Source: an uncultured Bacillales bacterium
Lineage (GTDB): Bacteria > Bacillota_I > Bacilli_A > RFN20 > CAG-826
NCBI GenBank assembly: GCA_946630435.1
Contig: CAMOYS010000001.1
Location: 7,433 to 71,432, forward strand
Direction of reading: 5' to 3'
Length of the DNA stretch: 64,000 nucleotides
The translations under genes and the position numbers were made by a program. This document shows positions 5,206-60,440 of this stretch, piece after piece. Below the pieces are notes generated by a model. That model was not told the DNA's origin. It saw only the letters and a list, made by a program, of their open reading frames with translations, and did no database searches. Within the stretch, counting starts at the first letter, position 1. Each line of letters starts with the position of its first letter.

Positions 5206-5611
5206 TGAAATTAGTCGTAACCAAGAGCACGAACTTATTATGGTGGCTATGTATGACGCCTTAGTTTATATTGCCTTAAACGAGGAGTTTTCTTTAGAAA
5301 ATATCTTAGAAGGAATCTATAATTTGCCTTATGAAGAGATTCCAAGTTACACCAAAGAAGTGCTCATTAAATCTTTAGCCCATATTAATGAAATTATCCC
5401 CGAATTTGAAAAGAATATGATTAACTGGAGATTCTCCCGTTTAAATAACATCATCCAGGCTATTCTTATAACTAGTTATACTAAGTTTAAATATTTAGAT
5501 AACCCAACTGATAAAAAAGTTGTCATCGATTTAGCGGTTCGTTTAACGAAGAAATTTGCCGAACCTCATGACTATAAATTTGTTAACGCAATTTTAGATA
5601 ATACTTTATGA
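5195..5611 (+). CDS. nusB: transcription antitermination factor NusB
   Basis: 138 aa with a C-terminal FVNAILDN motif. It lies upstream of xseA in the Bacillus-like nusB-xseA-xseB-dxs order. Confidence 0.75.
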   Translation: MENNEISRNQEHELIMVAMYDALVYIALNEEFSLENILEGIYNLPYEEIPSYTKEVLIKSLAHINEIIPEFEKNMINWRFSRLNNIIQAILITSYTKFKYLDNPTDKKVVIDLAVRLTKKFAEPHDYKFVNAILDNTL

Positions 5612-6998: not shown

Positions 6999-7052
6999 TT
7001 ACATAGTAATTAGTATAAATTTAATAGTTGATAATTAGTAGTTTTATAGTAT

Positions 7053-8915
7053 ATGTCTAGTAGAAAAGTTAACAAAGTTAATATCCCAAGCATCCAGGAA
7101 ATTAAAAGCCCGGAATTTTTGAAAGATCTTAACTATAAAGAACTCGATTTATTAAGCAAAGAAATTAGGGAAGAAATCCTAAGATGCACTGCGAAAAATG
7201 GTGGACACCTTTCTTCAAACCTCGGCGCAGTTGAATCTACAATTGCTTTACATAGAGTGTTTGACTTTAAAAAAGATAAGCTCATCTTAGATGTTGGTCA
7301 TCAATGTTACACCCATAAGATTCTTACTGGTAGAAGTTTAGAGAATCTCCGTAAGAAAGAGGGCACAAGCGGATTCCAAAAAGTCACTGAAAGTGAATAT
7401 GACCCATTCGATGCTGGACATAGTTCAACCTCAATTAGCGTTGCAGATGGCTTTGCCATTGCTCGTGATTTAGCAAAAGAAAACTATGAAGTAGTGGCCT
7501 TTATTGGTGATGGTTCCATTGCTTCTGGCCTAGCTTTTGAAGGTTTAAACAATGTTTCTCACTCTAATCACAAGGTCATTATTGTCTTAAATGACAATGA
7601 TATGTCTATTTCTCGCCCAGTAGGAGGCTTAGGTAAATCCTTTGCGAAGATTTCTCTTGGCTCAGGTTATAACAAAGTTAAACGCGGTTTATCTAAACTT
7701 CTTAGTAAAAACAAAGTTACAAGAGCAATCCTTAATTTCTTTAGAAAGATTAAAAACTGGATCAAATTTAAACTTGTCCCTCCAACTTTCTTTGATTCAT
7801 TAGGCTATACCTTTATTGGTCCAATTGATGGTCACAACATTAAAGCTATGGAGAAAGCCTTTAAGAAAGCTAAAAATGTTGATAAGAGTGTCATCATTGA
7901 TATTGTCACTACCAAAGGTAAAGGCTATAAATTTGCGGAAAATGACACAAGTGGAAGTTGGCATGGTGTCACCCCATTCAATCTTGAAACTGGTGAGCCA
8001 TTAAGCAAATGCGATACAACTTCTTGGTCCAATGCTTTAGCAAATATCACTTTAAAGAATATGGAGAAGAACGATAAACTCATTCTTATTTCTCCTGCTA
8101 CCTTAAAAGGTAGTGACCTTGAAGAAATCTTTAATAGATACCCAGATAGAGCGTTAGATGTAGGCATTGCTGAAGAGCATGCGATGACTCTTGCGGGTGG
8201 TTTATCTAAGAATGGCTATCATCCAATAGTCGATATCTATTCCACCTTCATGCAGCGCGCTTACGATGAAATTGCACACGATATTGCTCGTATGAATGTG
8301 GGTGCTACAATTATTGTTGATCGTTCTGGTGTCCCGGGAAATGATGGTGAAACTCATCAAGGCACTTTCGACGCGGGTATATTTAGCGCGACACCTAATT
8401 GTGTTATAACAATGCCTTCATCAGTGGAAGAAGCTGATCAATTATTCACTTTATCACTTAGTTATAACGGGCCATTCTTTATAAGAATTCCTCGTGGCTG
8501 TGTTAAACCATATTACGGAAATAGTGGGGAAGTTAGCTTTGCTAAATGGTATAAGAAAATTGAAGGTTCTTCAAAGAAAGTGGCAGTTGTTTCAACTGGT
8601 TCACTCATTAACGAACTCGCTAAAGAGATTGATGAATCTGGTAAAGACGTTACATTATTTAATGCCTTATTTATCGCACCAATCGATTTAGAGGCTGCTA
8701 AAGAACTCCTTTCTTATGAAAGAGTGGTTATTTACGATCCATATTCCACCCAATATGGCTTAGCCACTAACTTAACTATGGAACTTGTTAAATTAGGTTA
8801 TAAAGGAAAGATTGAAACAAGAACTCTTCCAAATGCTTTTATCAAACAAGCATCTGTTGATGAACAACTCGACGAATTAGGCTTAAAACCTAGTGATATT
8901 GTAAAAATTCTATAA
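7053..8915 (+). CDS. dxs: 1-deoxy-D-xylulose-5-phosphate synthase
   Basis: 620 aa with GGHLSSNLGAVE and the GDG thiamine-diphosphate motif; transketolase-like fold. Confidence 0.9.
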   Translation: MSSRKVNKVNIPSIQEIKSPEFLKDLNYKELDLLSKEIREEILRCTAKNGGHLSSNLGAVESTIALHRVFDFKKDKLILDVGHQCYTHKILTGRSLENLRKKEGTSGFQKVTESEYDPFDAGHSSTSISVADGFAIARDLAKENYEVVAFIGDGSIASGLAFEGLNNVSHSNHKVIIVLNDNDMSISRPVGGLGKSFAKISLGSGYNKVKRGLSKLLSKNKVTRAILNFFRKIKNWIKFKLVPPTFFDSLGYTFIGPIDGHNIKAMEKAFKKAKNVDKSVIIDIVTTKGKGYKFAENDTSGSWHGVTPFNLETGEPLSKCDTTSWSNALANITLKNMEKNDKLILISPATLKGSDLEEIFNRYPDRALDVGIAEEHAMTLAGGLSKNGYHPIVDIYSTFMQRAYDEIAHDIARMNVGATIIVDRSGVPGNDGETHQGTFDAGIFSATPNCVITMPSSVEEADQLFTLSLSYNGPFFIRIPRGCVKPYYGNSGEVSFAKWYKKIEGSSKKVAVVSTGSLINELAKEIDESGKDVTLFNALFIAPIDLEAAKELLSYERVVIYDPYSTQYGLATNLTMELVKLGYKGKIETRTLPNAFIKQASVDEQLDELGLKPSDIVKIL

Positions 8916-14079: not shown

Positions 14080-14106
14080 ATATAAATATTTAAATTCAAT
14101 TAAATT

Positions 14107-14132
14107 GCGCGAAAAATTCGCGCATTTTTATT
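14107..14132 (+). terminator. rho-independent terminator after the ABC permease
   Basis: GCGCGAAAAATTCGCGC hairpin followed by ATTTTTATT. Confidence 0.75.
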
Positions 14133-14162
14133 AGTCAAAATTTAAGCTGCAGAAGTCCGCTC

Positions 14163-14201
14163 TTTGGGAATAATTTTCCCAAACGTTTGAGTTCCTATAA
14201 T
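14163..14201. repeat. palindromic motif copy 2 (TTTGGGAATAATTTTCCCAAA, then N7-TTCCTATAAT)
   Basis: Inverted half-sites, followed by the conserved downstream TTCCTAT element. Confidence 0.7.
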
Positions 14202-14209
14202 TTATCTAA

Positions 14210-14570
14210 ATATTTCTTTTTGTGCGTGTAAAATTATTAAAATCTAGATATGCATACATAAATTAAAAATACGTATCGCGTGGGCAATAAAATTTAGTTA
14301 AATTCATAGGCACGAAATAATAAAAAATTAAATTTAGAAATAGAAATATAAGGATGAATACGCTTGCGAAAAAAATAATAATTTGGCGCGCATTAAATTA
14401 ATAAATCAAGTAGGGGTGAGCGTGTCAAAAAATAAAAAATTACGCACACGCTATAAGTATCATAAACGAGTGCACGCTCATAAATAATCTATATCCAAGT
14501 GCACGAGTAAAGTATAAGAGCATAACCCATGTGCATATAAATAAAATCTACCCACGTGATGCGGATAGAT
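14210..14570. repeat. degenerate roughly 27-bp periodic, iteron-like array in a convergent intergenic region
   Basis: About 12 units. Each is a GC-rich 8-14-mer containing a CGTG, CACG or GTGCAC core (for example CGAGTGCACGCTC, CAAGTGCACGAG, CCCACGTGATGCGG) followed by an AT-rich spacer (ATAAATAAAATC-like). Confidence 0.55.
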
Positions 14571-14573
14571 TAA

Positions 14574-15098
14574 TTAAGAATATTTATCAAAGTCGTCTGG
14601 AGGGACCGGCTGGTTAAGGTCGACTTTTGGTCTTGTTTCTTTATAACCTTTAAAGTCCACAATGAAGGAAGAGACAGTAAATACGCACGCTGCGATAAGC
14701 ATGTAATAGTTAAGTGTGAGGGCAGCGCCTAAGATTAAAACTGTACCCGCAAGAATAGTAAATGGAGCAGGGATTTTAATGAAGGCAAAAAGGTAACGAG
14801 GGTCATATCCGTGAGAGATGAAGACGACGTAAAGAATGAAATAAGCTCCACCAAAAACGATGCAGAAAAATGTGTAAGTGAAGAACCATCCGTTATAGCT
14901 AAATCCATGTGAATAGAGTAGGGCAAGAACGGTTGCGGCAATCCCAGAAAGAATCTCTAAAATGAAGAAGAGAAAAGTAGGGAACTTGAATAGACTCACT
15001 AAGATCTTTCCTTTGCCAGACGCAATGAAGTGAATCACCTTAGGCATGAAGAGGAAAAATGTAAATAGAGCAACGTATATTGAAGTCGGCGAGATCAT
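14574..15098 (-). CDS. hypothetical integral membrane protein
   Basis: 174 aa with about 5 transmembrane helices and no recognisable motif. It is flanked by long non-coding regions. Confidence 0.5.
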   Translation of the reverse strand: MISPTSIYVALFTFFLFMPKVIHFIASGKGKILVSLFKFPTFLFFILEILSGIAATVLALLYSHGFSYNGWFFTYTFFCIVFGGAYFILYVVFISHGYDPRYLFAFIKIPAPFTILAGTVLILGAALTLNYYMLIAACVFTVSSFIVDFKGYKETRPKVDLNQPVPPDDFDKYS

Positions 15099-15371
15099 GA
15101 TTTTGATTATAGGTAAAGGCGTCTAATTGTAAAGAAAAATCGGTTGTAGGGAAGGGAAATTAGTAGAAAATTAGTAGTTTTTGAAATCCACTCAGAGTGT
15201 GGAAAACCCCATTTTGTGGGTTATTAACTATATTTTGACAAACTAAGAAATCTGCTACAAAACACGATTAAATCGTGCTTTTATATTCTCTGGTTAACAT
15301 AATAGAGATTATGCGAAGTAATATATTGATAGCGGATTAGCCTTCTTCTATTACTCTTCTCCACTTTAAGA

Positions 15372-15408
15372 TAAAAAAAGAAACACACGTACGTATATAC
15401 GCGTGTAT
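15372..15408 (-). terminator. terminator of the yqeG-rsfS operon
   Basis: Minus strand: ACACGCGTATATACGTACGTGTGT hairpin then TTCTTTTTTTAT. Confidence 0.65.
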
Positions 15409-15432
15409 CCTTTTAATAATATATATTGTTTA

Positions 15433-23500: not shown

Positions 23501-24265
23501 TTGGAGGAAAAACGTATGGATATTATTATATATAATATAGTCATTGCTCTAGGAATGCTAATCATGGGATATTTAATCGGATCTATTCCTTTCTCTATTA
23601 TTCTTTCTAAGACTTTGTATCATAAAGACATCAGAGAATATGGTTCTAAAAACGCTGGTGGAACTAATATGGGTCGTGTCTTTGGTAAGAAAATCGGTGT
23701 TATCACTATCTTACTTGATATGGCGAAAACAATTTTAGCTCTTGTAGGCGCATATCTTTTAGTTAATTTAGTTTTTAATCCTTTATTCCAAGAACATTTT
23801 GGACAATTACTTTGGGATAATGGCATTCTTTATTACTATTTAGCCGCGCTTGGTGCTTCATTTGGACACTGCTGGCCAATCTATGCTGGCTTTAAAGGCG
23901 GTAAGACAGTTTCAGTCTTCACTGGCTTTGGAGTGGGCTGCTCCTGGTTTGAATTCTTAATCGGTTTAATCTGTTTCTTTGGACTCAAAATCAAAACCAA
24001 ATATGTCTCAGTTGCAAGTATCGGAACAGCGATCGGAATCACTATCACATCATGGGTTATGGCCCTCCTTGTTTTAGTGCTTAAAGATCAACCTGTTTAT
24101 CTTCAACATTTAGGCATGTGGGGTTGGGGTTATTATCTCCTCGCTGGATGGGAACATGCAAGTGTCATTACGATCATCGCAATTATCCTCGTTGTTCGTC
24201 ATATCCCAAATATTAAGCGACTCATTAAGGGTGAGGAAAATAAGGTCGGAAACGCTGCAAAATAG
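23501..24265 (+). CDS. plsY: glycerol-3-phosphate acyltransferase PlsY
   Basis: 254-aa membrane protein carrying the PlsY signature GSKNAGGTN. Confidence 0.9.
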   Translation: MEEKRMDIIIYNIVIALGMLIMGYLIGSIPFSIILSKTLYHKDIREYGSKNAGGTNMGRVFGKKIGVITILLDMAKTILALVGAYLLVNLVFNPLFQEHFGQLLWDNGILYYYLAALGASFGHCWPIYAGFKGGKTVSVFTGFGVGCSWFEFLIGLICFFGLKIKTKYVSVASIGTAIGITITSWVMALLVLVLKDQPVYLQHLGMWGWGYYLLAGWEHASVITIIAIILVVRHIPNIKRLIKGEENKVGNAAK

Positions 24266-24601
24266 TAGCAAATTAGTAGTTTTTTAGTCGAAATAATGAG
24301 TGTGAATAAATAAATCACACCTGGAAAACGTCGGTCAAAAAGTTCGATAAATTCGAATGTTTAGATTGACGTTTTTATTTTTATCCACACTGCCTCCCCT
24401 ACAACCACTACTCGGAATTTTATCACTATTAAAAAGAAGCCCGTTAAGGCCCCTATTTCTCCTCTACCCTAAAACTATTAAGCCCTATGTTGTTGTTCTT
24501 CTTTATGCTCCTATTTTGGCGATTTTCGTATTTTAACTTTTCACTAATTTTGAGTATTGTTTTTGTTTCTTTTTTGTACTCTATTTTCCCCTACTCCACT
24601 A

Positions 24602-24629
24602 ACAAAAAAGCACCCCATTTTTGGAGTGC
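24602..24629 (-). terminator. terminator after the yneF-like gene
   Basis: Minus strand: GCACTCCAAAAATGGGGTGC hairpin then TTTTTTGTT. Confidence 0.7.
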
Positions 24630-24648
24630 AATTTGATGAGAAATTTTG

Positions 24649-35177: not shown

Positions 35178-35220
35178 AATATTCCTCCTAACTTTATACT
35201 ATAAATCTACTAATAAACCA

Positions 35221-36588
35221 CTATTCTTCAATTTTATCTAAAAGATAGTTTCTAACTTCACTAATTGGAAGTCTGACTTGTTCCATAGTGTCACGGTTAC
35301 GGATTGTAACACTATTATCAGTGGCTGTATCGAAGTCAACAGTGATACAATATGGGGTTCCGATTGCGTCTTGTCGACGATATCTTTTACCGATAGAACC
35401 AGTCTCATCGTAAGTGATGGAGAAGTGTTTATTTAGTTTATTAACTAATTCTTTAGCTTGCTCTCCAAGTTGTTTGGATAATGGAAGAACTGCTGCTAAA
35501 TAAGGGGCTAAGATTGGTTTAAAGTGCATGACGATACGATCTTCCTTTTCAAGGTGTTCGACATCATACGCTTCGGTTGCGACCATTAAGAAGATTCTTT
35601 CAACACCCATTGATGGTTCGATACAATATGGGACGTATCTTTCATTAGTTTCTGGGTCTAAATAATCTAAAGATTGTTTACTATAAGAGATATGACGGTT
35701 TAAATCATAATCAGTACGGTCAGCAACGCCTAAGATTTCTCCCCAACCAAATGGGAATTTATATTCGACGTCGCAGGTTGCTTTACTATAGAAAGCAAGT
35801 TCAGCGGCTTCATGGTCTCTATAACGAAGGTTTTCTTCACTAATTCCTAATGATTCAAGGAACTTAAGTGAATAGTCTTTCCAATAGGAAAACCATTCTA
35901 AGTCAGTGCCAGGTTTACAGAAGAATTCCATTTCCATTTGTTCGAATTCTCTCACTCTAAAGATGAAGTTCCCTGGAGTGATTTCATTACGGAATGATTT
36001 ACCGATATTACAAATACCAAATGGGATTTTTCTTCTCGTTGTTCTTTGAACATTTTTAAAGTTAACGAACATTCCTTGAGCGGTTTCTGGTCTTAAATAG
36101 ACTTCAGTTGAGCTATCTTCAGTGACACCGATATGAGTTTTAAACATCATATTGAATTGGCGGATGTCAGTAAAGTTAGACTTACCACAGATAGGACATT
36201 TGACATGGTTATCTTTGATAAACTTAACCATATCTTCGTTTGTCATAGCGTGAACATCAACATCAGGATATTGTTCTTCAATTAAATTATCCGCACGATG
36301 ACGAGATTTGCATTCCTTACAGTCAATAAGGGGATCATTGAAAGTAGAAACGTGTCCGGTAGCTTCCCAAACTTTTGGGTTCATTAAGATTGCAGCGTCA
36401 AGTCCAACATTAGTTGGAGATTCATTAACGAACTTCCTCCACCACAATCTTTTAATGTTATTTTTGAGTTCAACTCCTAAAGGACCAAAGTCCCAGGAAT
36501 TAGAAAGTCCACCATAGATTTCGCTATCTTGATAGACAAATCCACTCGTAATTAAATGATTAACGATTTCATCGAATTTTTTATCCAT
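35221..36588 (-). CDS. glyQS: glycyl-tRNA synthetase (single-chain alpha2 type)
   Basis: 455-aa class II GlyRS with an anticodon-binding C-terminus. Confidence 0.9.
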   Translation of the reverse strand: MDKKFDEIVNHLITSGFVYQDSEIYGGLSNSWDFGPLGVELKNNIKRLWWRKFVNESPTNVGLDAAILMNPKVWEATGHVSTFNDPLIDCKECKSRHRADNLIEEQYPDVDVHAMTNEDMVKFIKDNHVKCPICGKSNFTDIRQFNMMFKTHIGVTEDSSTEVYLRPETAQGMFVNFKNVQRTTRRKIPFGICNIGKSFRNEITPGNFIFRVREFEQMEMEFFCKPGTDLEWFSYWKDYSLKFLESLGISEENLRYRDHEAAELAFYSKATCDVEYKFPFGWGEILGVADRTDYDLNRHISYSKQSLDYLDPETNERYVPYCIEPSMGVERIFLMVATEAYDVEHLEKEDRIVMHFKPILAPYLAAVLPLSKQLGEQAKELVNKLNKHFSITYDETGSIGKRYRRQDAIGTPYCITVDFDTATDNSVTIRNRDTMEQVRLPISEVRNYLLDKIEE

Positions 36589-50505: not shown

Positions 50506-50539
50506 CTTAACAAATATAAAGAGTGGCCAGATGCCACTC
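50506..50539 (-). terminator. possible terminator or attenuator between hemW and rimP
   Basis: GAGTGGCCAGATGCCACTC hairpin (7-bp stem) then a T-rich TTTATATTTG on the minus strand. The rimP SD lies immediately downstream. Confidence 0.4.
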
Positions 50540-50619
50540 CTAATATTAGAAGTTATTGCCCTTTCGAGCGACATTATGATAGCAATTATTTAATTAAATA
50601 GTCAAGACATTTTATTACT

Positions 50620-51714
50620 TTATAGTAAAACGAATAGTTCACGAAGTAGGAAATCAAGGAGCTTTAAACCTTTTTCGGTTGGTTTTATTGATTCGTTAAT
50701 TTCAATTAAGCCTTCCTTTTCCTGTTTTTGAAGGACATCTTTAAACTTTTCTAATGGATCAAAATGGAATCTATTAATAAATGTAGAAACTTTAAAACCT
50801 TCTTTTAATCTAAGATTAAGCATTAAGAAGTCCTCTATTTCTTCGTTTAGAGTGAGCTTTTCTTCAAAGTCTTTATATTCACCTTTTAGATATTTAGTTA
50901 ATGATTTTGTGTTAGTGTAACGAACTCCATTTATATAGCCTGAGGCTCCTAAGCCACAGCCATAATATTCTTCATCTTTCCAATATGTTTTATTGTGTCT
51001 ACTTTCATAGCCGTCTTTTGCAAAGTTAGATACTTCGTAATGAATGTAACCCGCTTCAGTTAGTGTTTTTACGATTAAATCATACATATAAGCATCTTTT
51101 TCATCGCTTAGTGGTTTAATCCCTTCATTATAGAATTTTGAACCCTTAGAAACGCTTAAAGAGTAGATGGAAATATGAGGAGTATCTAAAGATAAGATGT
51201 TTCTTAAGTCTTCTTTTAAAGCTTCCTCATCTTGTCCTGGAAGCCCATATATTAAATCAACATTGATGTTAGTAAAACCATATTCTTTCGCTAACGCCAC
51301 CACTTTTTTAGCGTCTTCAAAAGTATGATGTCTATTAATAGTTTTTAATATTTCATCATGCGTGGTTTGTACTCCAATTGATAAACGATTCACCCCTGCT
51401 TTTCGAAGAACTTCAAGTTTTTCTTTAGTGAGGTTTTCAACGTTAGCCTCAATAGTGAATTCGCCATTTTTCTTAAGATAACTACCTAGGAAGTCCACTA
51501 TTTGGGAAAACTTTCCCAATTCTAATGCGCTTGGAGTACCTCCTCCTAGGTAGATTGTTTCCATTTTTGGAATGTTATATGACTTTATTTCCAAAATTAA
51601 AGCTTCTACATATTTCGAAGCAAATTCTTCGTTATATAGAAGCTTAGTAAAGTCACAGTAACCGCAGATATGTTCACAAAAAGGAATATGAACATAAAGC
51701 GATTTAGTATTCAT
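50620..51714 (-). CDS. hemW: radical SAM heme chaperone HemW (HemN-like)
   Basis: 364 aa with the CEHICGYCDF radical SAM motif and a HemN C-terminal domain. Confidence 0.85.
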   Translation of the reverse strand: MNTKSLYVHIPFCEHICGYCDFTKLLYNEEFASKYVEALILEIKSYNIPKMETIYLGGGTPSALELGKFSQIVDFLGSYLKKNGEFTIEANVENLTKEKLEVLRKAGVNRLSIGVQTTHDEILKTINRHHTFEDAKKVVALAKEYGFTNINVDLIYGLPGQDEEALKEDLRNILSLDTPHISIYSLSVSKGSKFYNEGIKPLSDEKDAYMYDLIVKTLTEAGYIHYEVSNFAKDGYESRHNKTYWKDEEYYGCGLGASGYINGVRYTNTKSLTKYLKGEYKDFEEKLTLNEEIEDFLMLNLRLKEGFKVSTFINRFHFDPLEKFKDVLQKQEKEGLIEINESIKPTEKGLKLLDFLLRELFVLL

Positions 51715-51720
51715 TAAAAG

Positions 51721-51960
51721 TTAGTCTTTCTTTTCTTCTTCTTTGCGGTTTTCTTCCATCGCTTTTAAAGTTTCTTCATCTTCGACAGGAACTAAAATAC
51801 GATCGAGTTCTTGTTTGGCCGCCTCTTCTTCAGTGATTGTATCGTCTTTTTTGATTTGAAGAGGAGAAAATTTCTTTTTAACTAAGATAATAACGATGAC
51901 TAAAACGCCAAAGAATCCTAAGACTCCTAATAATATCCAAAGTGCACTACCGTCTCCCAT
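51721..51960 (-). CDS. small single-pass membrane protein with a charged tail (unknown)
   Basis: 79 aa with an N-terminal transmembrane helix and an EEK-rich C-terminus. It lies 7 bp upstream of hemW. Confidence 0.5.
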   Translation of the reverse strand: MGDGSALWILLGVLGFFGVLVIVIILVKKKFSPLQIKKDDTITEEEAAKQELDRILVPVEDEETLKAMEENRKEEEKKD

Positions 51961-51978
51961 AGGGTTTAGTCTCCTTCC

Positions 51979-53457
51979 TTAATCTCTTTTAATTGGGGTA
52001 TAAACGAACTTATTCTTAACTTGTTCCCGTTTATAATACCCTCTTTTTGCCAAATTATCCATAGAAGTTCTCGCGGTTTCATAAACGCAGCCTTCAGCTT
52101 TCTTAAATTGCTGAATAGTGTAGAACTTACCTAAGGTACAATGTCTCACATAGAAATGCGCTTGCGCTGGGCGAAGAAGTGGATCAGATTCAAGTAAATC
52201 TTCTTCAAGTCTATTGAGAGATTTTTCATCGCTAGGTTTAGCGATATTAACATAGTTAATTTTAGGTGCTTCTTCATCCACTTTAAGTTCTTTAGCTTCA
52301 CGTGGTTTACTTTGAACTTTAACTGGTTCTTCCTTTGGAACGATTCTTTCGAACTTAATTTCGCGAACTGGTTCAGGCTTAATTTCCTTTTCCTCTTTTT
52401 CGTATGGCTTTTCTTCAAGCTTAATACCAAGTTCTTCTTCGATAGCTTCTTTTTCATCTACACCATAGAAAGCATCGCGAGCTTCATCAACTTGGGAACG
52501 CGCAATAGAATCTAAAACTAATTGGATTTCTTTAGAAACTAAGTCATTTGTTAAGTTATTGATATAAGTAATATCTCTAGTTTTTTGAACTTCTCTAAGC
52601 ATTACTTTTACTCTTTCATGTTCATCCACTAAAAGGAGTTCGACTGGAACGATTGAAGCAAGTCTATCGATATCAAACTTTGCAAGCGTAAGTTTAATAA
52701 GAAGAATCGCCATTAGTTCGTTATATTTTTCAAATGGTTTAATGTAATCCATCATATAAAATATGGCGGATAGTTTTACTGGGGAGGAAGCGTTGGAGTT
52801 ATTGATAAAATCAATCAAATCATCCATAAGCGATTCAATCGCGAATGATGGCACTCCACTATATTCTTTATTAATAACCGCTCTAGCAGCACTTCTTTCT
52901 TGGGAATTATATTCACCTTCTCTATAGAAAGAGAGAAGCTCATTTTCACCATTAAGAATTCCATAATAGGTGGCGATTGTATCTTCATTGATGTCATCCA
53001 TCGAATTCTTTTCTAAGTATTCTAAAGCATCATAATAATTAGATACAGGTGCGTACATTCTATCAACTGGACGATGATTGATAATATTATCAACTGCAAC
53101 ATCATTAATGATGATATTTAAGCTTTTCGCTACAGCGATAAGTTCGGCCTTCTTCATCTCATTACTGACAGTTATTCTTTCAATCTTGTTATTAATCCAA
53201 GCGGAAGTCTTTGATAGTAAGCGAGATAATTTAATCGCTAAATCATTGTTCTTTCTAACGATTAAAGAAGTGTTAACAATGTAGTATGCGTTTTTAGACA
53301 CATCATAAATATCGAGGTTTGAAACAAAGCTTGAACGATAGGTCACAATATTGTTCCAAATACCATCGACTAAGTTGGTTCTTAGTTCACGAGCCACCTC
53401 TGATCTTGAAGCGTATATTTCTTCGGAGAATCTGACGGCTAAATTGGAATTTGCCAT
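51979..53457 (-). CDS. Fic-fold-like protein with a degenerate active-site motif and a C-terminal winged-helix-like domain (putative pseudoenzyme)
   Basis: 492 aa. SAIFYMMDYIKPFEKYNELMAILLIKLTL aligns with the Fic core IHPFxDGNGRxxRLLxNLxL, with H to K, D to K, G to Y, G to E and R to L substitutions. A KE-rich linker and a C-terminal wHTH-like segment follow. Confidence 0.4.
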   Translation of the reverse strand: MANSNLAVRFSEEIYASRSEVARELRTNLVDGIWNNIVTYRSSFVSNLDIYDVSKNAYYIVNTSLIVRKNNDLAIKLSRLLSKTSAWINNKIERITVSNEMKKAELIAVAKSLNIIINDVAVDNIINHRPVDRMYAPVSNYYDALEYLEKNSMDDINEDTIATYYGILNGENELLSFYREGEYNSQERSAARAVINKEYSGVPSFAIESLMDDLIDFINNSNASSPVKLSAIFYMMDYIKPFEKYNELMAILLIKLTLAKFDIDRLASIVPVELLLVDEHERVKVMLREVQKTRDITYINNLTNDLVSKEIQLVLDSIARSQVDEARDAFYGVDEKEAIEEELGIKLEEKPYEKEEKEIKPEPVREIKFERIVPKEEPVKVQSKPREAKELKVDEEAPKINYVNIAKPSDEKSLNRLEEDLLESDPLLRPAQAHFYVRHCTLGKFYTIQQFKKAEGCVYETARTSMDNLAKRGYYKREQVKNKFVYTPIKRD

Positions 53458-53534
53458 ATAAAATCCCTCCCATTTAACTTTATTTTAAAAGAATGGCTTT
53501 TATATATCAATATAATAATTACTAATTTTTCACT

Positions 53535-53566
53535 AATAAAAAACTAGATACCGACCATGTACCTAG
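53535..53566 (-). terminator. terminator after lepA
   Basis: Minus strand: CTAGGTACATGGTCGGTATCTAG hairpin then TTTTTTATT. Confidence 0.7.
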
Positions 53567-53596
53567 TTATTATTTTTAATAATTATCGAAGAGGTT

Positions 53597-55408
53597 TTAC
53601 TCTTCTTCATCGATGGAAAGCACGCTCATAAAGGCTTCTTGTGGGACTTCAATTGAGCCGATTGCCTTCATACGTTTCTTACCTTCTTTTTGCTTTTCAA
53701 GTAGCTTACGTTTACGAGAAATATCACCACCATAACACTTCGCTAAAACGTCTTTTCGGACTGCTTTAATATCAGCTCTAGCAATGATTTTACCCCCTAC
53801 CGCAGCTTGGATTGGGACTTCAAATTGCTGTCTTGGGATAATCTCTTTTAATTTACGTACGACTACAGATGCACGTCCATAAGCGGTTGATCTATGAACG
53901 ATTGTGGATAAGGCATCGATTGTTTCTCCATTAAGGAGAATATCCATCTTTGCAAGGTTACCTGCCTTATAATCACTATATTCATAGTCTAAGGAAGCAT
54001 ATCCTTTTGTGTATGATTTAAGTTTATCAAAGAAATTATAAATAATTTCACTAAGTGGTAACTCGTAATGGATAATCATTCTAGTGTCATCGAAGTATTC
54101 TAAATCAATATAAATACCCCTTCTTTCTTGGCAGAGTTCCATAACTGGACCAACAAACTCTTTAGGAGTCATGATACTTGCTTTGACATATGGTTCTTGG
54201 ATTTCTTTAACCATTGTTAAATCGGGAAGCTTAGATGGGTTATCAAGTTCTAAGACTTCACCTTTGGTGAGAATGATACGATATATGACGCTTGGCGCGG
54301 TTAAAATGAGATCTAAACCATATTCTCTTTCAAGTCTTTCTTCCACTACTTCCATATGGAGTAAGCCTAAGAAGCCGCATCTAAAACCAAAGCCTAAGGC
54401 TTGGGACGTTTCAGGTTCAAAGGTTAAAGAAGCATCATTAAGGGATAATTTCTCTAAAGCATCTTTTAAATCAGCGTATTTCTTAGATTCAACTGGGTAA
54501 AGACCACAGTAAACCATTGGATTCATGTGTTTATAGCCCGCTAGAGGCTCTTTTGCTGGGTTAGTCGATAAAGTAATCGTTTCACCCGGAAAAACGTCTT
54601 TAATGTCCTTTATTTGGGCGGCTAGATAACCAACCTCACCAGCGCTTAAGGAATCTTTCTTAATTTCTTTAGGTGTTCTAATACCTACTTCTGTTACTAA
54701 ATATTCTTTATCAGTCGCCATTAAGCGAATAGTGTCTCCAACCTTAACAGAACCATTTTTAATTCTAATTAAGACGATAACTCCACGGTAAGAATCATAG
54801 AAAGAATCAAAGATTAAGGCTTGAAGAGGAGCGTTTATATCTCCAGAAGGGGCTGGAATATTATTCACAACCATTTCAAGAACTTTATCCACGCCTTGCC
54901 CTGTTTTAGCACTTACTTCACAAGCGTTTTCGCAGGATATACCGATTCGTTTTTCAATTTCTTCTTTAACTAGTTCAGGCATTGCGCTTGGTAAATCAAC
55001 TTTGTTGATAACTGGAAGAATTTCTAAGTCATTATCGATAGCAAGATAGACATTTGCTAAAGTTTGGGCTTCAACACCTTGAGTAGCATCCACTACTAAA
55101 AGGCAGCCTTCACAGGCAGCTAATGAACGAGATACTTCGTATGAGAAGTCGACATGCCCGGGAGTGTCGATTAAATTGAACAAATAATCTTCACCATTTA
55201 AAGAGTGATACTTAATTGTGACCGCGTTTAGCTTAATCGTAATTCCTCTTTCTCTTTCTAAATCCATAGAATCGAGGATTTGATCTTTCATTTCTCTTTT
55301 AGAGATTGTTTCAGTTAACTCTAAAATTCGATCCGCTAAAGTTGATTTACCGTGATCGATGTGAGCAATGATTGAGAAGTTACGAATATGCTTTTGGTCA
55401 AAATCCAT
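53597..55408 (-). CDS. lepA: elongation factor 4 (LepA)
   Basis: 603-aa translational GTPase with the LepA C-terminal domain. Confidence 0.95.
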
Positions 55409-55804: not shown

Positions 55805-56962
55805 TTATTTAGCGAATTTCTTTTTGAATCTAGCGAATATTCCGTCATCATCTTTCTTCAATGTTTCACGGTATTTCTCTAATAATTCCTTCTGCTCTTT
55901 CGAGAGTTTTGTTGGAGTTTCGACTTTAATATGAATGTATTGATTTCCTGGAGTGCCTTTACGAAGATCCTTAATTCCTCTTCCTTTAAGAAGGAGAACC
56001 GCGGTAGGTTGAGTTCCTGCTGGGACATTGACTTCAACATCACCATAAACAGTTGGAACATCAATCTTAGTACCTAACGTAACATCGATAAAGTTAAGTG
56101 GGACATCAATATGGATATCATTGCCATCACGTTTGAAGTATTCATGTGGATTAATGATGATTTCTAAGTATAAGTCGCCATTTTCACCACCGTTATAGCC
56201 TCTAGAGCCCTTACCTTTAACGCGGATTTGTTGACCAGCGTTAATACCAGCAGGAATATTGACTTCAATATCCTTTTTAACGCGGTTATAACCTTTACCG
56301 TTACAGTCGTGGCACATATCGGTGATAACTTTGCCGCTTCCTTGACATTCAGGACAGACTGACTCATTTTCCATCATCCCGAACATAGTTCGTTGAGTGG
56401 TTCTAATGTAACCACTACCATTACATTTAGTACAAGTTTTTAAATGAGTTCCATCTTTTGCTCCCGTACCTTTACATGATTGACATTCTTCATCATAAGT
56501 TACTGGAATCTTAACTTTCTTCCCGAGGACAGCGTCCATGAAGTTAACTTTGACTCTCATAAGAGAGTCTTCGCCTCTTCTTGGTCCAGAGTGAGAGCCT
56601 CTTCCACTAGAGAAACCACCCATACCTCCGCCACCGAAGAATTGGTTAAAGATATCATTTAAGTTAACTCCACCAAAGCCAGCTCCTGAGAAACCTGAGC
56701 CACTGAATGGATTACCTTGACCACCGGTTGAGGCGCCTTGTTCAAACGCAGCCATACCGAACTGATCATACATTTCTCTTTTCTTATCATCATAAAGAAC
56801 ATCGTAAGCTTCTTGAACTTCTTTGAACTTCTCTTCTGCTCCTGGTTCTTTATTGATATCTGGGTGATACTTTTTGGCTAATTTACGGTAAGCAGATTTA
56901 ATTTCATCTTTAGATGCACCTTTAGTTAAACCTAAAACTTCGTAGAAATCTCTTTTAGCCAT
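55805..56962 (-). CDS. dnaJ: chaperone DnaJ
   Basis: J domain (HPD), G/F region and four CxxCxGxG zinc-finger repeats. Confidence 0.95.
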
Positions 56963-58873: not shown

Positions 58874-59422
58874 TTATGCGTCTAAATCAGGGACGTCTTC
58901 TTTATTTTCTTCGTTATCATTACCCGCGACCACGACAATTGATGGACGGATAAGATGTTCGTGAAGTTTATAGCCTTTAGCTTTAACTTCGAGTATGGTG
59001 TTTTCTTTCGCGTCAGGATCATTTCTTTTCTCTAACGCTTGCATGGTGACGGGATCAAATGTATCCCCCACCTTTGGTGATAACTCAATTACTCCGTTAT
59101 TTTCTAAGACAGTAACTAAGTTTTGGTAGATGTATTTAAATCCGATTAAGAAGTTTTCCATCTCCTTACTTGAGGCTTCGTTTTGAAGAGCCATATGGAA
59201 GCCATCTAAGATTGGTAAGAGATCTCCGACAAAGCCTTCAGCGCGATATTTAATTGCTTCTTTATGATCTTTTTCAACGATCTTACGAAGGTTTTGCATA
59301 TCAGCGTAAGCGCGGTAGTATTCATTTTTCCAATGTTCACAATCGCTTTTGGCTTTTTCGAGTTCTTCGTTCTCTTTTTTATCCACTACTTCTTCGTTTA
59401 ATTCTTCTTTATTTTTCTTCAT
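58874..59422 (-). CDS. grpE: nucleotide exchange factor GrpE
   Basis: 182-aa GrpE fold, between hrcA and dnaK. Confidence 0.9.
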   Translation of the reverse strand: MKKNKEELNEEVVDKKENEELEKAKSDCEHWKNEYYRAYADMQNLRKIVEKDHKEAIKYRAEGFVGDLLPILDGFHMALQNEASSKEMENFLIGFKYIYQNLVTVLENNGVIELSPKVGDTFDPVTMQALEKRNDPDAKENTILEVKAKGYKLHEHLIRPSIVVVAGNDNEENKEDVPDLDA

Positions 59423-60440
59423 CCTTATCCTTTCTTACTTGCTTAGAAGCGAAGTATTTTTCTATTTCATTTATGAGATATTCCATGTTGGACATAACTT
59501 TGTTATAGTCCATTCTCTTTGGTCCGACGATTGCGATATTGGATTCGTTATTGTTAGGGAGAGTGATTTTAGCAGAGATGATTGATACATCTTCATCCGC
59601 TTCATCTTCCCCACCGATATGAATCGAGATATCTTTATCATCGTTACTTAAGGATTGGAATACTTTTGGTGATTCGAATAATTCGAGGAGTTTTTTAATC
59701 TTTTGAGCGTCTTCTGAGAACTCTGGTTGCTCGAATAATTCATCGGTACCATAAGTTTTAAGACGATCTTTAGTGAAACTTACGAACGCTTCCATCATCG
59801 CTTGATAAATCATGTCTTGGTCAATGATGTAATCACTAATTAATGGCTTAATCGCTTGCATCTTAGGAACGAGTTCACTAATGGATGTTCCGTTTAAGCG
59901 GTCATTAAGTAATTTGACTATCTTAGTGACATCTTCAAGGGAGATTTTATCGTCTAAGACAAATGTCTTATTTTCAACATAACCTTGGTCAGTTACAAAG
60001 ACACAAGTCGCAGAATTAGAAGATAATGGTACGAGTTGAACAGAGATTAATTTCTCTTCATTAGCTTTAGGTCCTAAGACGATAGAGGCTAAGGAAGTCA
60101 TTTCGGATAAGATCTCTAATGATTGAGAGATAACTTCTTCAACTGATTGAATCTTTTCGTTGAGGACGTTTTGAACTTTATAACGGAACTCTTCATCAAC
60201 GGATTTCTCTCTAAGATTATCAATATAGTATCGATATCCTTTACTAGAAGGAACGCGCCCGGATGAGGTATGAGGTTTTTCAAGATAACCTTCAAGTTCA
60301 AGAGCGTTCATTTCAGCGCGGATTGTCGCACTTGAGTAATCGAGATGATATTCTTCGATAAGAGTTTTGGAGCCAACTGGTGTCGCGTATTTAATAAAGT
60401 ATTCAACGATTAACTTTAAGACACGGTCACGTCTATTCAT
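59409..60440 (-). CDS. hrcA: heat-inducible transcription repressor HrcA
   Basis: 343 aa with an N-terminal wHTH. It is the first gene of the dnaK operon, and CIRCE elements lie upstream. Confidence 0.9.
   Translation of the reverse strand: MNRRDRVLKLIVEYFIKYATPVGSKTLIEEYHLDYSSATIRAEMNALELEGYLEKPHTSSGRVPSSKGYRYYIDNLREKSVDEEFRYKVQNVLNEKIQSVEEVISQSLEILSEMTSLASIVLGPKANEEKLISVQLVPLSSNSATCVFVTDQGYVENKTFVLDDKISLEDVTKIVKLLNDRLNGTSISELVPKMQAIKPLISDYIIDQDMIYQAMMEAFVSFTKDRLKTYGTDELFEQPEFSEDAQKIKKLLELFESPKVFQSLSNDDKDISIHIGGEDEADEDVSIISAKITLPNNNESNIAIVGPKRMDYNKVMSNMEYLINEIEKYFASKQVRKDKDEEK

Follow-up and report, generated by a model that had tools for sequence, protein, structure and literature searches.

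A predicted Fic-fold protein with a replaced catalytic motif is conserved between lepA and hemW in uncultured Bacilli

Introduction

Why should a protein that resembles Fic enzymes, but whose active site has been rewritten, be held in place among housekeeping genes? This question is raised by a 64,000-nucleotide stretch of DNA (hereafter the window) from an uncultured Bacillales bacterium of the GTDB order RFN20, family CAG-826 (GenBank assembly GCA_946630435.1, contig CAMOYS010000001.1, positions 7,433 to 71,432). Between lepA and hemW, and like them on the minus strand, lie two open reading frames (ORFs). The first, ficL (51979-53457), encodes a protein of 492 amino acids that we call FicL, a Fic-fold pseudoenzyme with a C-terminal winged helix; the second, tm79 (51721-51960), encodes the single-pass membrane protein TM79, of 79 amino acids. 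A sequence-only reading of this DNA had placed both genes between lepA and hemW, an order that we confirm, and had proposed that the larger product is a degenerate Fic module, perhaps a regulatory or antitoxin-like scaffold, made together with a heme chaperone.

Fic proteins have been studied as enzymes: as AMPylases, toxins and effectors, and lately as agents of phage defence. No paper describing the FicL family was found in our literature search, and none that reports its dead motif, conserved gene order or promoter. The account that we prefer, although we hold it tentatively and at a little under an even chance, is that FicL is a catalytically dead descendant of the SoFic-type (class II) Fic proteins that has become fixed in the chromosome of its clade and serves as a non-enzymatic regulator or scaffold built on the Fic fold.

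Results

FicL almost certainly has the Fic fold. When the single sequence is compared with the Pfam Fic family (PF02661), residues 176-257 are matched with an E-value of 0.002 and a score of 19.3 bits; the Fic stretch is therefore recognized, but its score falls short of the gathering cut-off of 24. Many FicL homologues carry a precomputed match to the same family. The single sequence also matches the solved Fic protein 4rgl weakly (E 0.0027), whereas a family profile made from 46 members finds 4rgl at E 2.4e-11 and additionally matches Coxiella Fic2 (CbFic2), a Mycobacterium marinum Fic protein, FICD and SoFic. The PADLOC model for SoFic matches FicL at E 1.2e-8. An AlphaFold2 model of the protein has a mean pLDDT of 81 and a pTM of 0.65, and the top matches of this model in a Foldseek comparison with the PDB are Fic proteins only (best E 7.7e-8), with a Foldseek probability of 1.00 for each of SoFic (3zcn and 3eqx), 4rgl, 7cb8, 8cil and FICD. 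The Fic relationship that had been proposed from a short motif alignment is thus upheld by the family profile, the PADLOC SoFic model and the structure comparison alike. The alignments between FicL and SoFic run to about 445 columns and therefore cover the whole architecture. Among Fic proteins, FicL stands nearest to the SoFic-type members of class II, in which a winged helix forms the C-terminus.

The catalytic motif HxFx(D/E)GNGRxxR reads KPFEKYNELMAI in the FicL of the window. This degenerate version, K240-P-F-E-K-Y-N-E-L-M-A-I251 in place of H-x-F-x-(D/E)-G-N-G-R-x-x-R, is encoded at 52705-52740 on the minus strand. The stretch by which the sequence-only reading had recognized it, IKPFEKYNELMAILLIKLTL, corresponds to FicL residues 239-258, and the C-terminal sequence quoted there is likewise present in the protein. 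In an alignment of 253 family members, from which all column counts given here are taken, the canonical motif is replaced in 253 of 253 sequences, the consensus being K-P-F-[E/D]-x-[Y/F/H]-N-[E/D]-E. Specifically, the position of the histidine is occupied by lysine in 216 of the 253, and histidine is not among its six commonest residues. The next position is proline in 252 (P241 in FicL), and the motif phenylalanine (F242) is retained in 247. The first glycine has given way to tyrosine, phenylalanine or histidine. The asparagine (N246) remains in 220 sequences and is serine in 29, while the second glycine is glutamate or aspartate in 154. At the first arginine position (248), glutamate is found 193 times and leucine 31 times, and the second arginine position is hydrophobic. 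The regular expression H.F..GN[GK]R has no match in 120 close homologues and 136 distant cluster representatives. Thus, the replacement of the histidine, both glycines and both arginines extends from the window protein, where most of it had been noticed before, to all 253 relatives examined.

Inhibition has left no conserved signature either. In a profile alignment, the inhibitory-helix motif of 4rgl, SLAIEN, falls on FicL residues 112-117, which read SLNIII. The class II motif [S/T]xxxE[G/N] is not conserved in the FicL family: its serine position is variable, the position of the inhibitory glutamate holds N, D, I, K, S or Q, and the G/N position holds V or I. Nor is this motif conserved in the alignment of TM79, where the conserved motif is instead EELDRxLxPxxDE. 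A conserved inhibitory-helix motif, which the sequence-only reading had marked as worth looking for, is therefore absent from FicL and from the 79-residue protein. Two residues of the flap, Y199 and P203, are conserved across the FicL family. With the catalytic base, the phosphate anion hole and the regulatory glutamate all missing, canonical AMPylation by FicL is very unlikely; we take its loss to be highly probable, on the strength of the sequence and of established knowledge of how Fic proteins work.

Could FicL nevertheless be an enzyme with a changed chemistry, its replacement motif forming a new active site or ligand pocket and its winged helix serving to target or regulate it? The replacement residues are themselves strongly conserved (K240, P241, F242, N246 and E248, with the counts given above), which indicates that the pocket is still under selection, and the flap residues are kept. 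Moreover, Doc is a kinase and AnkX a phosphocholine transferase, both on the Fic scaffold. To our knowledge, however, all known Fic/Doc chemistries employ the motif histidine as the catalytic base and a G-N-G/K-R anion hole for phosphates. In FicL the histidine is absent, both glycines have become bulky or acidic, and the arginines have become glutamate or leucine and a hydrophobic residue; with two of its phosphate-binding positions acidic, such a pocket should repel phosphates. The loss of the inhibitory glutamate is likewise what would be expected if there were no activity to restrain. That the scaffold supports several chemistries is established knowledge, discussed also in a survey of AMPylating enzymes (PMC4454073). 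On balance, we judge a changed chemistry to be very unlikely.

At 90% identity, the FicL homologues fall into at least 454 clusters; at 50% identity (E ≤ 1e-30) there are 297, of which the best 150 are mostly full-length. Relatives are found in 429 species-level genomes. The records listed are metagenome-assembled genomes (MAGs) of uncultured organisms sampled from rumen, gut and digester. Their labels are Bacilli, Erysipelotrichaceae or Bacillales, together with a few names that are obviously mis-binned. One record, Coprobacillus sp. CAG:826, would by its name belong to GTDB family CAG-826 of the order RFN20, a lineage that is predicted to lack peptidoglycan (PMC10868615). The phylogenetic distribution, a matter that the sequence-only reading had left to be settled, therefore corresponds to a clade of uncultured Bacilli from gut and rumen.

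Gene order, synteny and promoter structure were read from 80 loci (numbered with the prefix L) taken from species genomes that carry FicL relatives. The order lepA-FicL-hemW is broken in none of the 80, a few of which end before one flank. Wherever the whole gene is held (76 loci), the match spans FicL residues 1-492 or nearly so, at an overall identity of about 35-45%. Loci L081 and L084-L086 show the Bacillus-type order helicase-lepA-FicL-TM-hemW-hrcA-grpE-dnaK-dnaJ, whereas the window has its heat-shock genes on the upstream side of lepA. Because the position of the heat-shock operon differs while the block is kept, lepA-ficL-tm79-hemW evidently survives rearrangement of its surroundings. 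FicL has no matches in phage or plasmid collections. The family is chromosomal and lineage-wide, and its arrangement is not due to chance.

This distribution bears on the least favourable view of FicL, namely that the space between lepA and hemW holds the decaying remnant of a toxin/antitoxin or defence module of the SoFic-AS1 type, with a FicL that is functionless and kept only for the hemW promoter. Such an origin would fit the SoFic-type nature of the closest relatives, the dead catalytic motif and the small downstream antitoxin gene of SoFic systems (PMC12249575). A pseudogene-like remnant, however, would not be expected to stay intact and constrained over the divergence seen here: FicL is full-length in the 76 loci just described and spread over 429 species, its winged helix and its replacement motif are constrained although overall identity is about 35-45%, and no copies are carried by phages or plasmids. 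The evidence for purifying selection is already strong, and decay is accordingly an extremely improbable explanation.

Selection has not acted evenly along the protein, as indicated by the mean column conservation of its parts. The N-terminal domain (amino acids 1-62; 53272-53457, minus strand), composed of three helices and a beta-hairpin, is the second most conserved region (0.52), and its residues Y15, W34, Y40 and R41 are each at least 95% conserved; it was placed in no known family. It is followed by a helical region (63-175; 0.36) that includes the former inhibitory helix, by the Fic core with its flap (176-300; 52558-52932, minus strand; 0.45), and by a long helix (297-343; 0.30 over amino acids 301-343). 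Next comes a disordered linker rich in E, K and P (344-409; 52231-52428, minus strand; pLDDT below 50), which at about 65 residues is variable in both length and sequence and is the least conserved region of all (0.19). The C-terminal winged helix (410-492; 51982-52230, minus strand) is the most conserved part of FicL (0.71) and contains the invariant runs YETART.M..L...GYY and K.KF.YTP.

When modelled alone, the C-terminal domain reaches a pLDDT of 86.5 and adopts an H-H-H-H-beta-beta topology, that of a winged helix. Its best Foldseek matches are TrmBL2, CadC/ArsR, TubR, the MarR family, MecI, AspA and the C-terminal domain of SoFic (3zec); ribosomal eS25 and the Z-alpha domain are also among the fold matches, and there is a weak match to Pfam Penicillinase_R (E 0.005). 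The winged helix that had been suspected from the sequence is therefore recovered in the domain model, with DNA-binding winged-helix proteins and the SoFic C-terminal domain as its nearest counterparts. The model supports a fold of the DNA-binding type, and it carries no information on specificity.

If this domain does bind DNA, then where might its site be? A candidate lies at the start of its own gene. In the window, a promoter-like sequence for ficL, tm79 and hemW, TTGATA-17-TAAAAT (53482-53510, minus strand), is followed by a GGGAGG ribosome-binding site. Just upstream of its -35 hexamer are three direct repeats, CTAGTT, TTAGTG and TTAGTA, at a spacing of 11 bp (53520-53547, minus strand), which make up a candidate protein-binding array.

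The geometry of this region was measured over 74 loci. Each ficL array holds two to four repeats, with three being present in 50 of the 74. Between the end of the array and a -35-like hexamer, whose commonest form is TTGTAA, lie 6-8 bp in 49 loci; in another 11 the distance is 17-18 bp, larger by exactly one turn of the helix. The spacer between the -35 and -10 elements is 17 bp long in 55 loci, the -10 element is a perfect TATAAT in 36, and the ATG of ficL lies 18-24 nt beyond the -10. The TTAGTA core is almost invariant: its G, for example, is conserved in 77 of 77 and in 76 of 77 units that were aligned. Pairs of TTAGT are separated by 11 bp in 62 cases and by 22 bp in 17, and no other spacing up to 40 bp is seen more than nine times. 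In 70 of the 80 loci, the 200 bp upstream of FicL include an array that agrees with at least 11 of 12 core bases, while only four such arrays occur in the remaining ~780 kb. Judged from these elements, ficL has a predicted sigma-70-type promoter of its own that is conserved across the clade. That the array is in helical phase with the -35 hexamer speaks for a double-stranded element to which a protein binds and which is in communication with RNA polymerase.

Other assignments for the array were considered. In most other loci the gap between lepA and ficL is shorter than in the window, and the repeats start at or beside the lepA stop codon. An element of the lepA 3' end is rejected: extra DNA intervenes between lepA and ficL in L064, L070, L073 and the window, and the array keeps its distance to ficL. 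Because it stays with ficL, the array is an element of the ficL promoter. CIRCE was likewise rejected, since the similarity is confined to a TTAGCA start, seen in some loci, and an inverted repeat is lacking; and FicL as a replacement for HrcA was discarded because hrcA is present. In L080, where lepA is not upstream of FicL, a perfect TTAGTA-N5-TTAGTA array stands in the opposite orientation at ~3792 (minus strand), 83 bp upstream of FicL; this arrangement is possibly a rearrangement breakpoint.

An inverted repeat over the -35 region is a possible second operator. In the window it reads TTATAT-TGAT-ATATAA (53500-53515, minus strand), with arms of 6 bp. Inverted repeats with arms of at least 5 bp cover this region in 39 of the 74 loci, compared with 18% of shuffled controls. 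Their arms measure 5-8 bp and their sequence varies by subclade, (T)CTTAT-TGTA-ATAAG(A) being found in many relatives (L002-L035, for example).

The promoter also redraws the boundaries of the operon. The ficL stop codon is followed after 18 nt by the start of tm79, in the same reading frame, and the tm79 stop codon after 6 nt by that of hemW; the close packing described earlier is real, but the gaps given then, 19 and 7 bp, were each too large by one. Because the three genes are so tightly packed, they probably form a single transcription unit, which may end at a terminator-like hairpin 3' of hemW (50519-50541, minus strand) that overlaps the over-extended GTG start of the listed rimP ORF. 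The sequence-only reading had extended this operon to lepA. Co-transcription of ficL with lepA is doubtful, because the 139-nt gap between them holds both the conserved ficL promoter and a terminator-like hairpin with a T-run 3' of lepA (53542-53568, minus strand). This hairpin is seen in the window and in the close relative L001. Most related loci are without it, and the remaining promoter elements are kept in all.

The surrounding genes are all on the minus strand. In transcription order, hrcA (59409-60440) comes first and is followed by grpE and dnaK and then dnaJ (55805-56962), so that the hrcA-grpE-dnaK-dnaJ heat-shock operon, which had been noted as a neighbour, is directly upstream of lepA. 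The lepA gene (53597-55408), the conserved upstream neighbour, encodes EF4 with GTP_EFTU, LepA_C and EFG_C domains. The last gene of the putative unit, hemW (50620-51714), encodes a member of the radical-SAM heme chaperone family that scores 305 bits against TIGR00539 (cut-off 205) and contains Radical_SAM and HemN_C domains. The genes rimP, nusA, ylxR and infB lie 3' of hemW.

TM79 has one strongly hydrophobic stretch at about L7-V27, with a mean Kyte-Doolittle value of 3.3 over 19 residues from residue 9, in keeping with its earlier description as a single-pass protein. This segment is followed by KKK and then by an acidic tail, which by the positive-inside rule would probably be cytoplasmic. 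The tail carries the motif (Q/E)ELDR(I/V)LxP(I/V)(E/D)DE at residues 50-63, which across relatives becomes (E/Q)EL(D/N)R(I/V)Lx(P)(I/V)(E/D)DE. There are 728 homologues, and the three whose contexts were looked up again have the order lepA-FicL-TM-hemW. A small ORF of 72-106 amino acids with one transmembrane segment precedes hemW in 77 of 77 loci with both flanks; the linkage to a small membrane protein, which had been seen in one genome and put forward for checking, is thus a regular property of the block. No PADLOC model matches TM79. Four homologues (P0156, P0172, P0209 and P0236) have a faint precomputed match to Pfam PF27867 (Membra_charge), and TM79 may already be included in this recently curated family.

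In five loci (L028, L034, L045, L071 and L075), a pfkA-like gene of about 320 amino acids (RIAVLTSGGDAPGMNAA...) lies between ficL and tm79. In all five, tm79 stays directly upstream of hemW, with which it often overlaps in other genomes. These insertions indicate that tm79 is more tightly linked to hemW than to ficL.

Such linkage invites the proposal that FicL and TM79 together make up an adaptor, anchored in the membrane, that serves HemW, or LepA and the translation machinery, and has no role at DNA. The winged helix would then bind a conserved protein or RNA, TM79 would tether the complex where HemW delivers its cargo, and the arrays would belong to another factor. The position of tm79 immediately before hemW, even where a pfkA-like gene separates it from ficL, speaks for this proposal, as does the retention of ficL-tm79-hemW after the neighbouring heat-shock operon had moved. 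Winged helices can also bind RNA or protein, as the presence of eS25 and Z-alpha among the fold matches recalls. Linkage alone, however, is no proof of interaction, and a dependence of hemW on the ficL promoter could by itself freeze the gene order. Furthermore, among the nearest structural counterparts of the C-terminal domain, DNA-binding proteins are in the majority, and a conserved, helically phased array at the ficL promoter is most simply read as a sign of autoregulation. We therefore consider an adaptor unlikely.

Arrays of the same kind occur elsewhere in the window. A five-unit array between xseB and dxs (7004-7063, plus strand) runs into the dxs start codon, and another lies in a non-coding stretch near rsfS (15160-15182, plus strand). 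At the plsY stop codon (24262-24290, plus strand), the first unit of an array supplies the TAG stop. Between glyS and dnaG (35198-35224, minus strand), the first unit contains the glyS stop codon and the last abuts the dnaG ribosome-binding site. The conservation of these arrays was checked in seven 20-kb loci whose DnaG is 50-59% identical to that of the window. The glyS/dnaG array is present in four of the seven (L207, L209, L210 and L212) and absent from three, where glyS and dnaG nearly adjoin. All five loci that reach plsY (L208, L210, L211, L212 and L213) have the plsY array, as does the window.

Two general explanations for these arrays were examined. None of the seven 20-kb loci has an array of at least 10 of 12 core bases next to the ribosomal-protein genes rpmF, rpsU or rpmG, which makes a generic UP element unlikely. 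TAG repeats are known as origin elements, the DnaA-trios (PMC10316083). Apart from those at the plsY and 15160 sites, which may be of this kind, the arrays were not assigned to this class, because their units are spaced at 11 bp instead of being contiguous and because most of the sites are without DnaA boxes.

Several further observations concern these sites. A conserved non-coding region lies 3' of the plsY array (24290-24640 in the window) and recurs in L208, L210, L211, L212 and L213. It contains the DnaA-box-like sequence TGTGAATAA, with a perfect TTATCCACA at ~24383-24391 in the window, and, within a hairpin that has a T-run, the conserved segment AAAGTT(T)CGATGAA; TTGACG comes next. Possible identities for this region are a cluster of DnaA boxes, an element connected with an origin and a small RNA; in the window, neither Rfam nor a tRNA search gave a match. 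At ~14080-15430 the cumulative GC skew reaches its peak, and the genes of the window, which are on the plus strand over 1-14 kb, change to the minus strand (14.5-64 kb). With ~500 bp of AT-rich non-coding DNA at 14080-14570 and the sequence AATAATATATATTGTTTATT near 15405, which we take to be dif-like, this part of the window looks like a replication terminus. A match to TTAGTAGAnAATTGGTA recurs at ~5387-5440 in a gene with a Peptidase_C39 domain in L207, L209, L210 and L212, where it is most likely the by-product of a conserved, ELVENWY-like peptide and not a functional array. When the three-repeat pattern was sought in metagenomes, none of the 80 matches listed carried a close relative of any gene in the window.

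Discussion

How might a dead Fic domain, a winged helix, a small membrane protein and a phased promoter array work together? We propose that the working end of FicL would be its tethered winged helix, which would bind DNA, and that the phased TTAGTA array would be its target, allowing autoregulation of ficL-tm79-hemW. FicL would also control the few other sites with arrays, at glyS/dnaG-rpoD, at xseB/dxs and 3' of plsY. As an input module, the dead Fic domain would bind a partner or a small ligand. The likeliest partner for it would be the acidic cytoplasmic tail of TM79, which would hold FicL at the membrane or release it. The parts of this proposal are not equally secure. That FicL is a DNA-binding regulator that acts through its winged helix seems to us an evenly balanced proposition. 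The TTAGTA arrays are the candidate site, but we regard this assignment as doubtful, and a direct interaction of FicL with TM79, its candidate partner, is just as doubtful.

Autoregulation is favoured because the winged helix and the repeats are both near-invariant while elsewhere in the protein identity has fallen to 35-45%, and because the array is conserved at FicL's own promoter (70 of the 80 loci). Control by a small protein is favoured because the SoFic system provides a precedent in which the product of a small downstream gene and the C-terminal domain both regulate the Fic protein (PMC12249575).

Other observations weigh against this proposal. Arrays occur at other places besides the ficL promoter. 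Those at glyS/dnaG and xseB/dxs abut or overlap a start codon, and no gene in the same orientation follows the plsY array; with site geometries that differ in this way, a single 'activator site' model does not fit all of them, and the TTAGTA arrays could be bound by another factor. The near-invariance of the winged helix and of the repeats also makes covariation between protein and DNA uninformative, and the invariance of the winged helix could equally be explained by a conserved protein or RNA partner. The Foldseek matches of this domain are generic, with E-values of 6.6e-3 or weaker. Finally, the small protein may functionally be HemW's rather than FicL's. The idea of an antitoxin-like scaffold, offered by the sequence-only reading, is speculation.

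A more far-reaching version of the same mechanism would make FicL a clade-specific global factor, whose tethered winged helices read the arrays at its own promoter, at dnaG-rpoD, at dxs and in a stretch beside plsY with many DnaA-box-like sequences, while TM79 holds the dead Fic domain at the membrane. We think this version quite unlikely. If it were true, a retired AMPylase would have become a membrane-coupled switch through which envelope or heme status acts on replication and transcription genes, in Bacilli with reduced genomes that are partly wall-less.

Among known systems, the nearest in architecture are the SoFic class II proteins (Shewanella oneidensis SoFic, 3EQX/3ZCN; Coxiella burnetii Fic2, 8CIL; Desulfovibrio Dde_2494, 4RGL; COG3177). 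FicL has in common with them an N-terminal part with a helix at the position of the inhibitory helix, a Fic core with a flap, and a C-terminal winged helix. It differs in that HxFx(D/E)GNGRxxR and [S/T]xxxE[G/N] are both lost family-wide, in the disordered linker of ~65 residues between the Fic core and the winged helix, and in occupying a fixed housekeeping position in the genome instead of a variable one.

In anti-phage defence, SoFic is an active, toxic AMPylase whose catalytically dead H194A form is non-toxic; it is opposed by AS1, a small gene located downstream, and its activity is under the control of its C-terminal domain (PMC12249575). FicL belongs to the same subfamily and has a small gene downstream as well. 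However, it lacks the motif histidine and is located not on mobile elements but in a fixed block of core genes in 429 species, and TM79, a membrane protein of 72-106 amino acids among its relatives, contrasts with the 47-residue AS1. The class I antitoxin of FicTA carries [S/T]xxxE[G/N], whereas TM79 is without this motif and is a membrane protein.

Fic-related proteins with altered motifs are also found among effectors. Bartonella BepC has a non-canonical FIC motif and is reported to recruit GEF-H1 to the membrane (PMC7842960); AvrB has the Fido fold without the motif (PMC4454073). As in FicL, the fold is kept while the motif is altered, and these proteins function by binding, not by AMPylation. 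Unlike FicL, which is cytoplasmic and has a housekeeping context, a winged helix and a candidate membrane partner, BepC and AvrB are secreted effectors that target a host. The survey of AMPylating enzymes reports that some Fic/Doc clades are without key catalytic residues and are nevertheless under selection (PMC4454073). Those cases are single-residue losses, and the FicL family, the complete replacement of the motif, the synteny and the promoter are not described there.

FicL thus lacks the catalytic motif of active Fic enzymes and the inhibitory motif of class II, and it does not fit the SoFic defence system, with its active enzyme in a mobile or variable setting, or FicTA, with its antitoxin motif. 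We would class it as a non-catalytic form of the Fic/winged-helix architecture, descended from SoFic-type proteins. What is new here is the promoter belonging to ficL itself, with its phased TTAGTA repeats.

In databases, some members of the family are labelled 'Fic family protein' and others 'hypothetical protein'. Automated calls of the former kind, or defence calls made with the SoFic model, would wrongly present such genes as active enzymes or as defence systems. The testable parts of the system are compact: a short winged-helix domain, a repeat phased at 11 bp and a tail motif of 13 residues. With an active site that has been rewritten and is yet under strong selection, the FicL family makes a clear case of a bacterial Fic pseudoenzyme, and domestication of a defence- or toxin-type module for housekeeping regulation is a plausible account of it.

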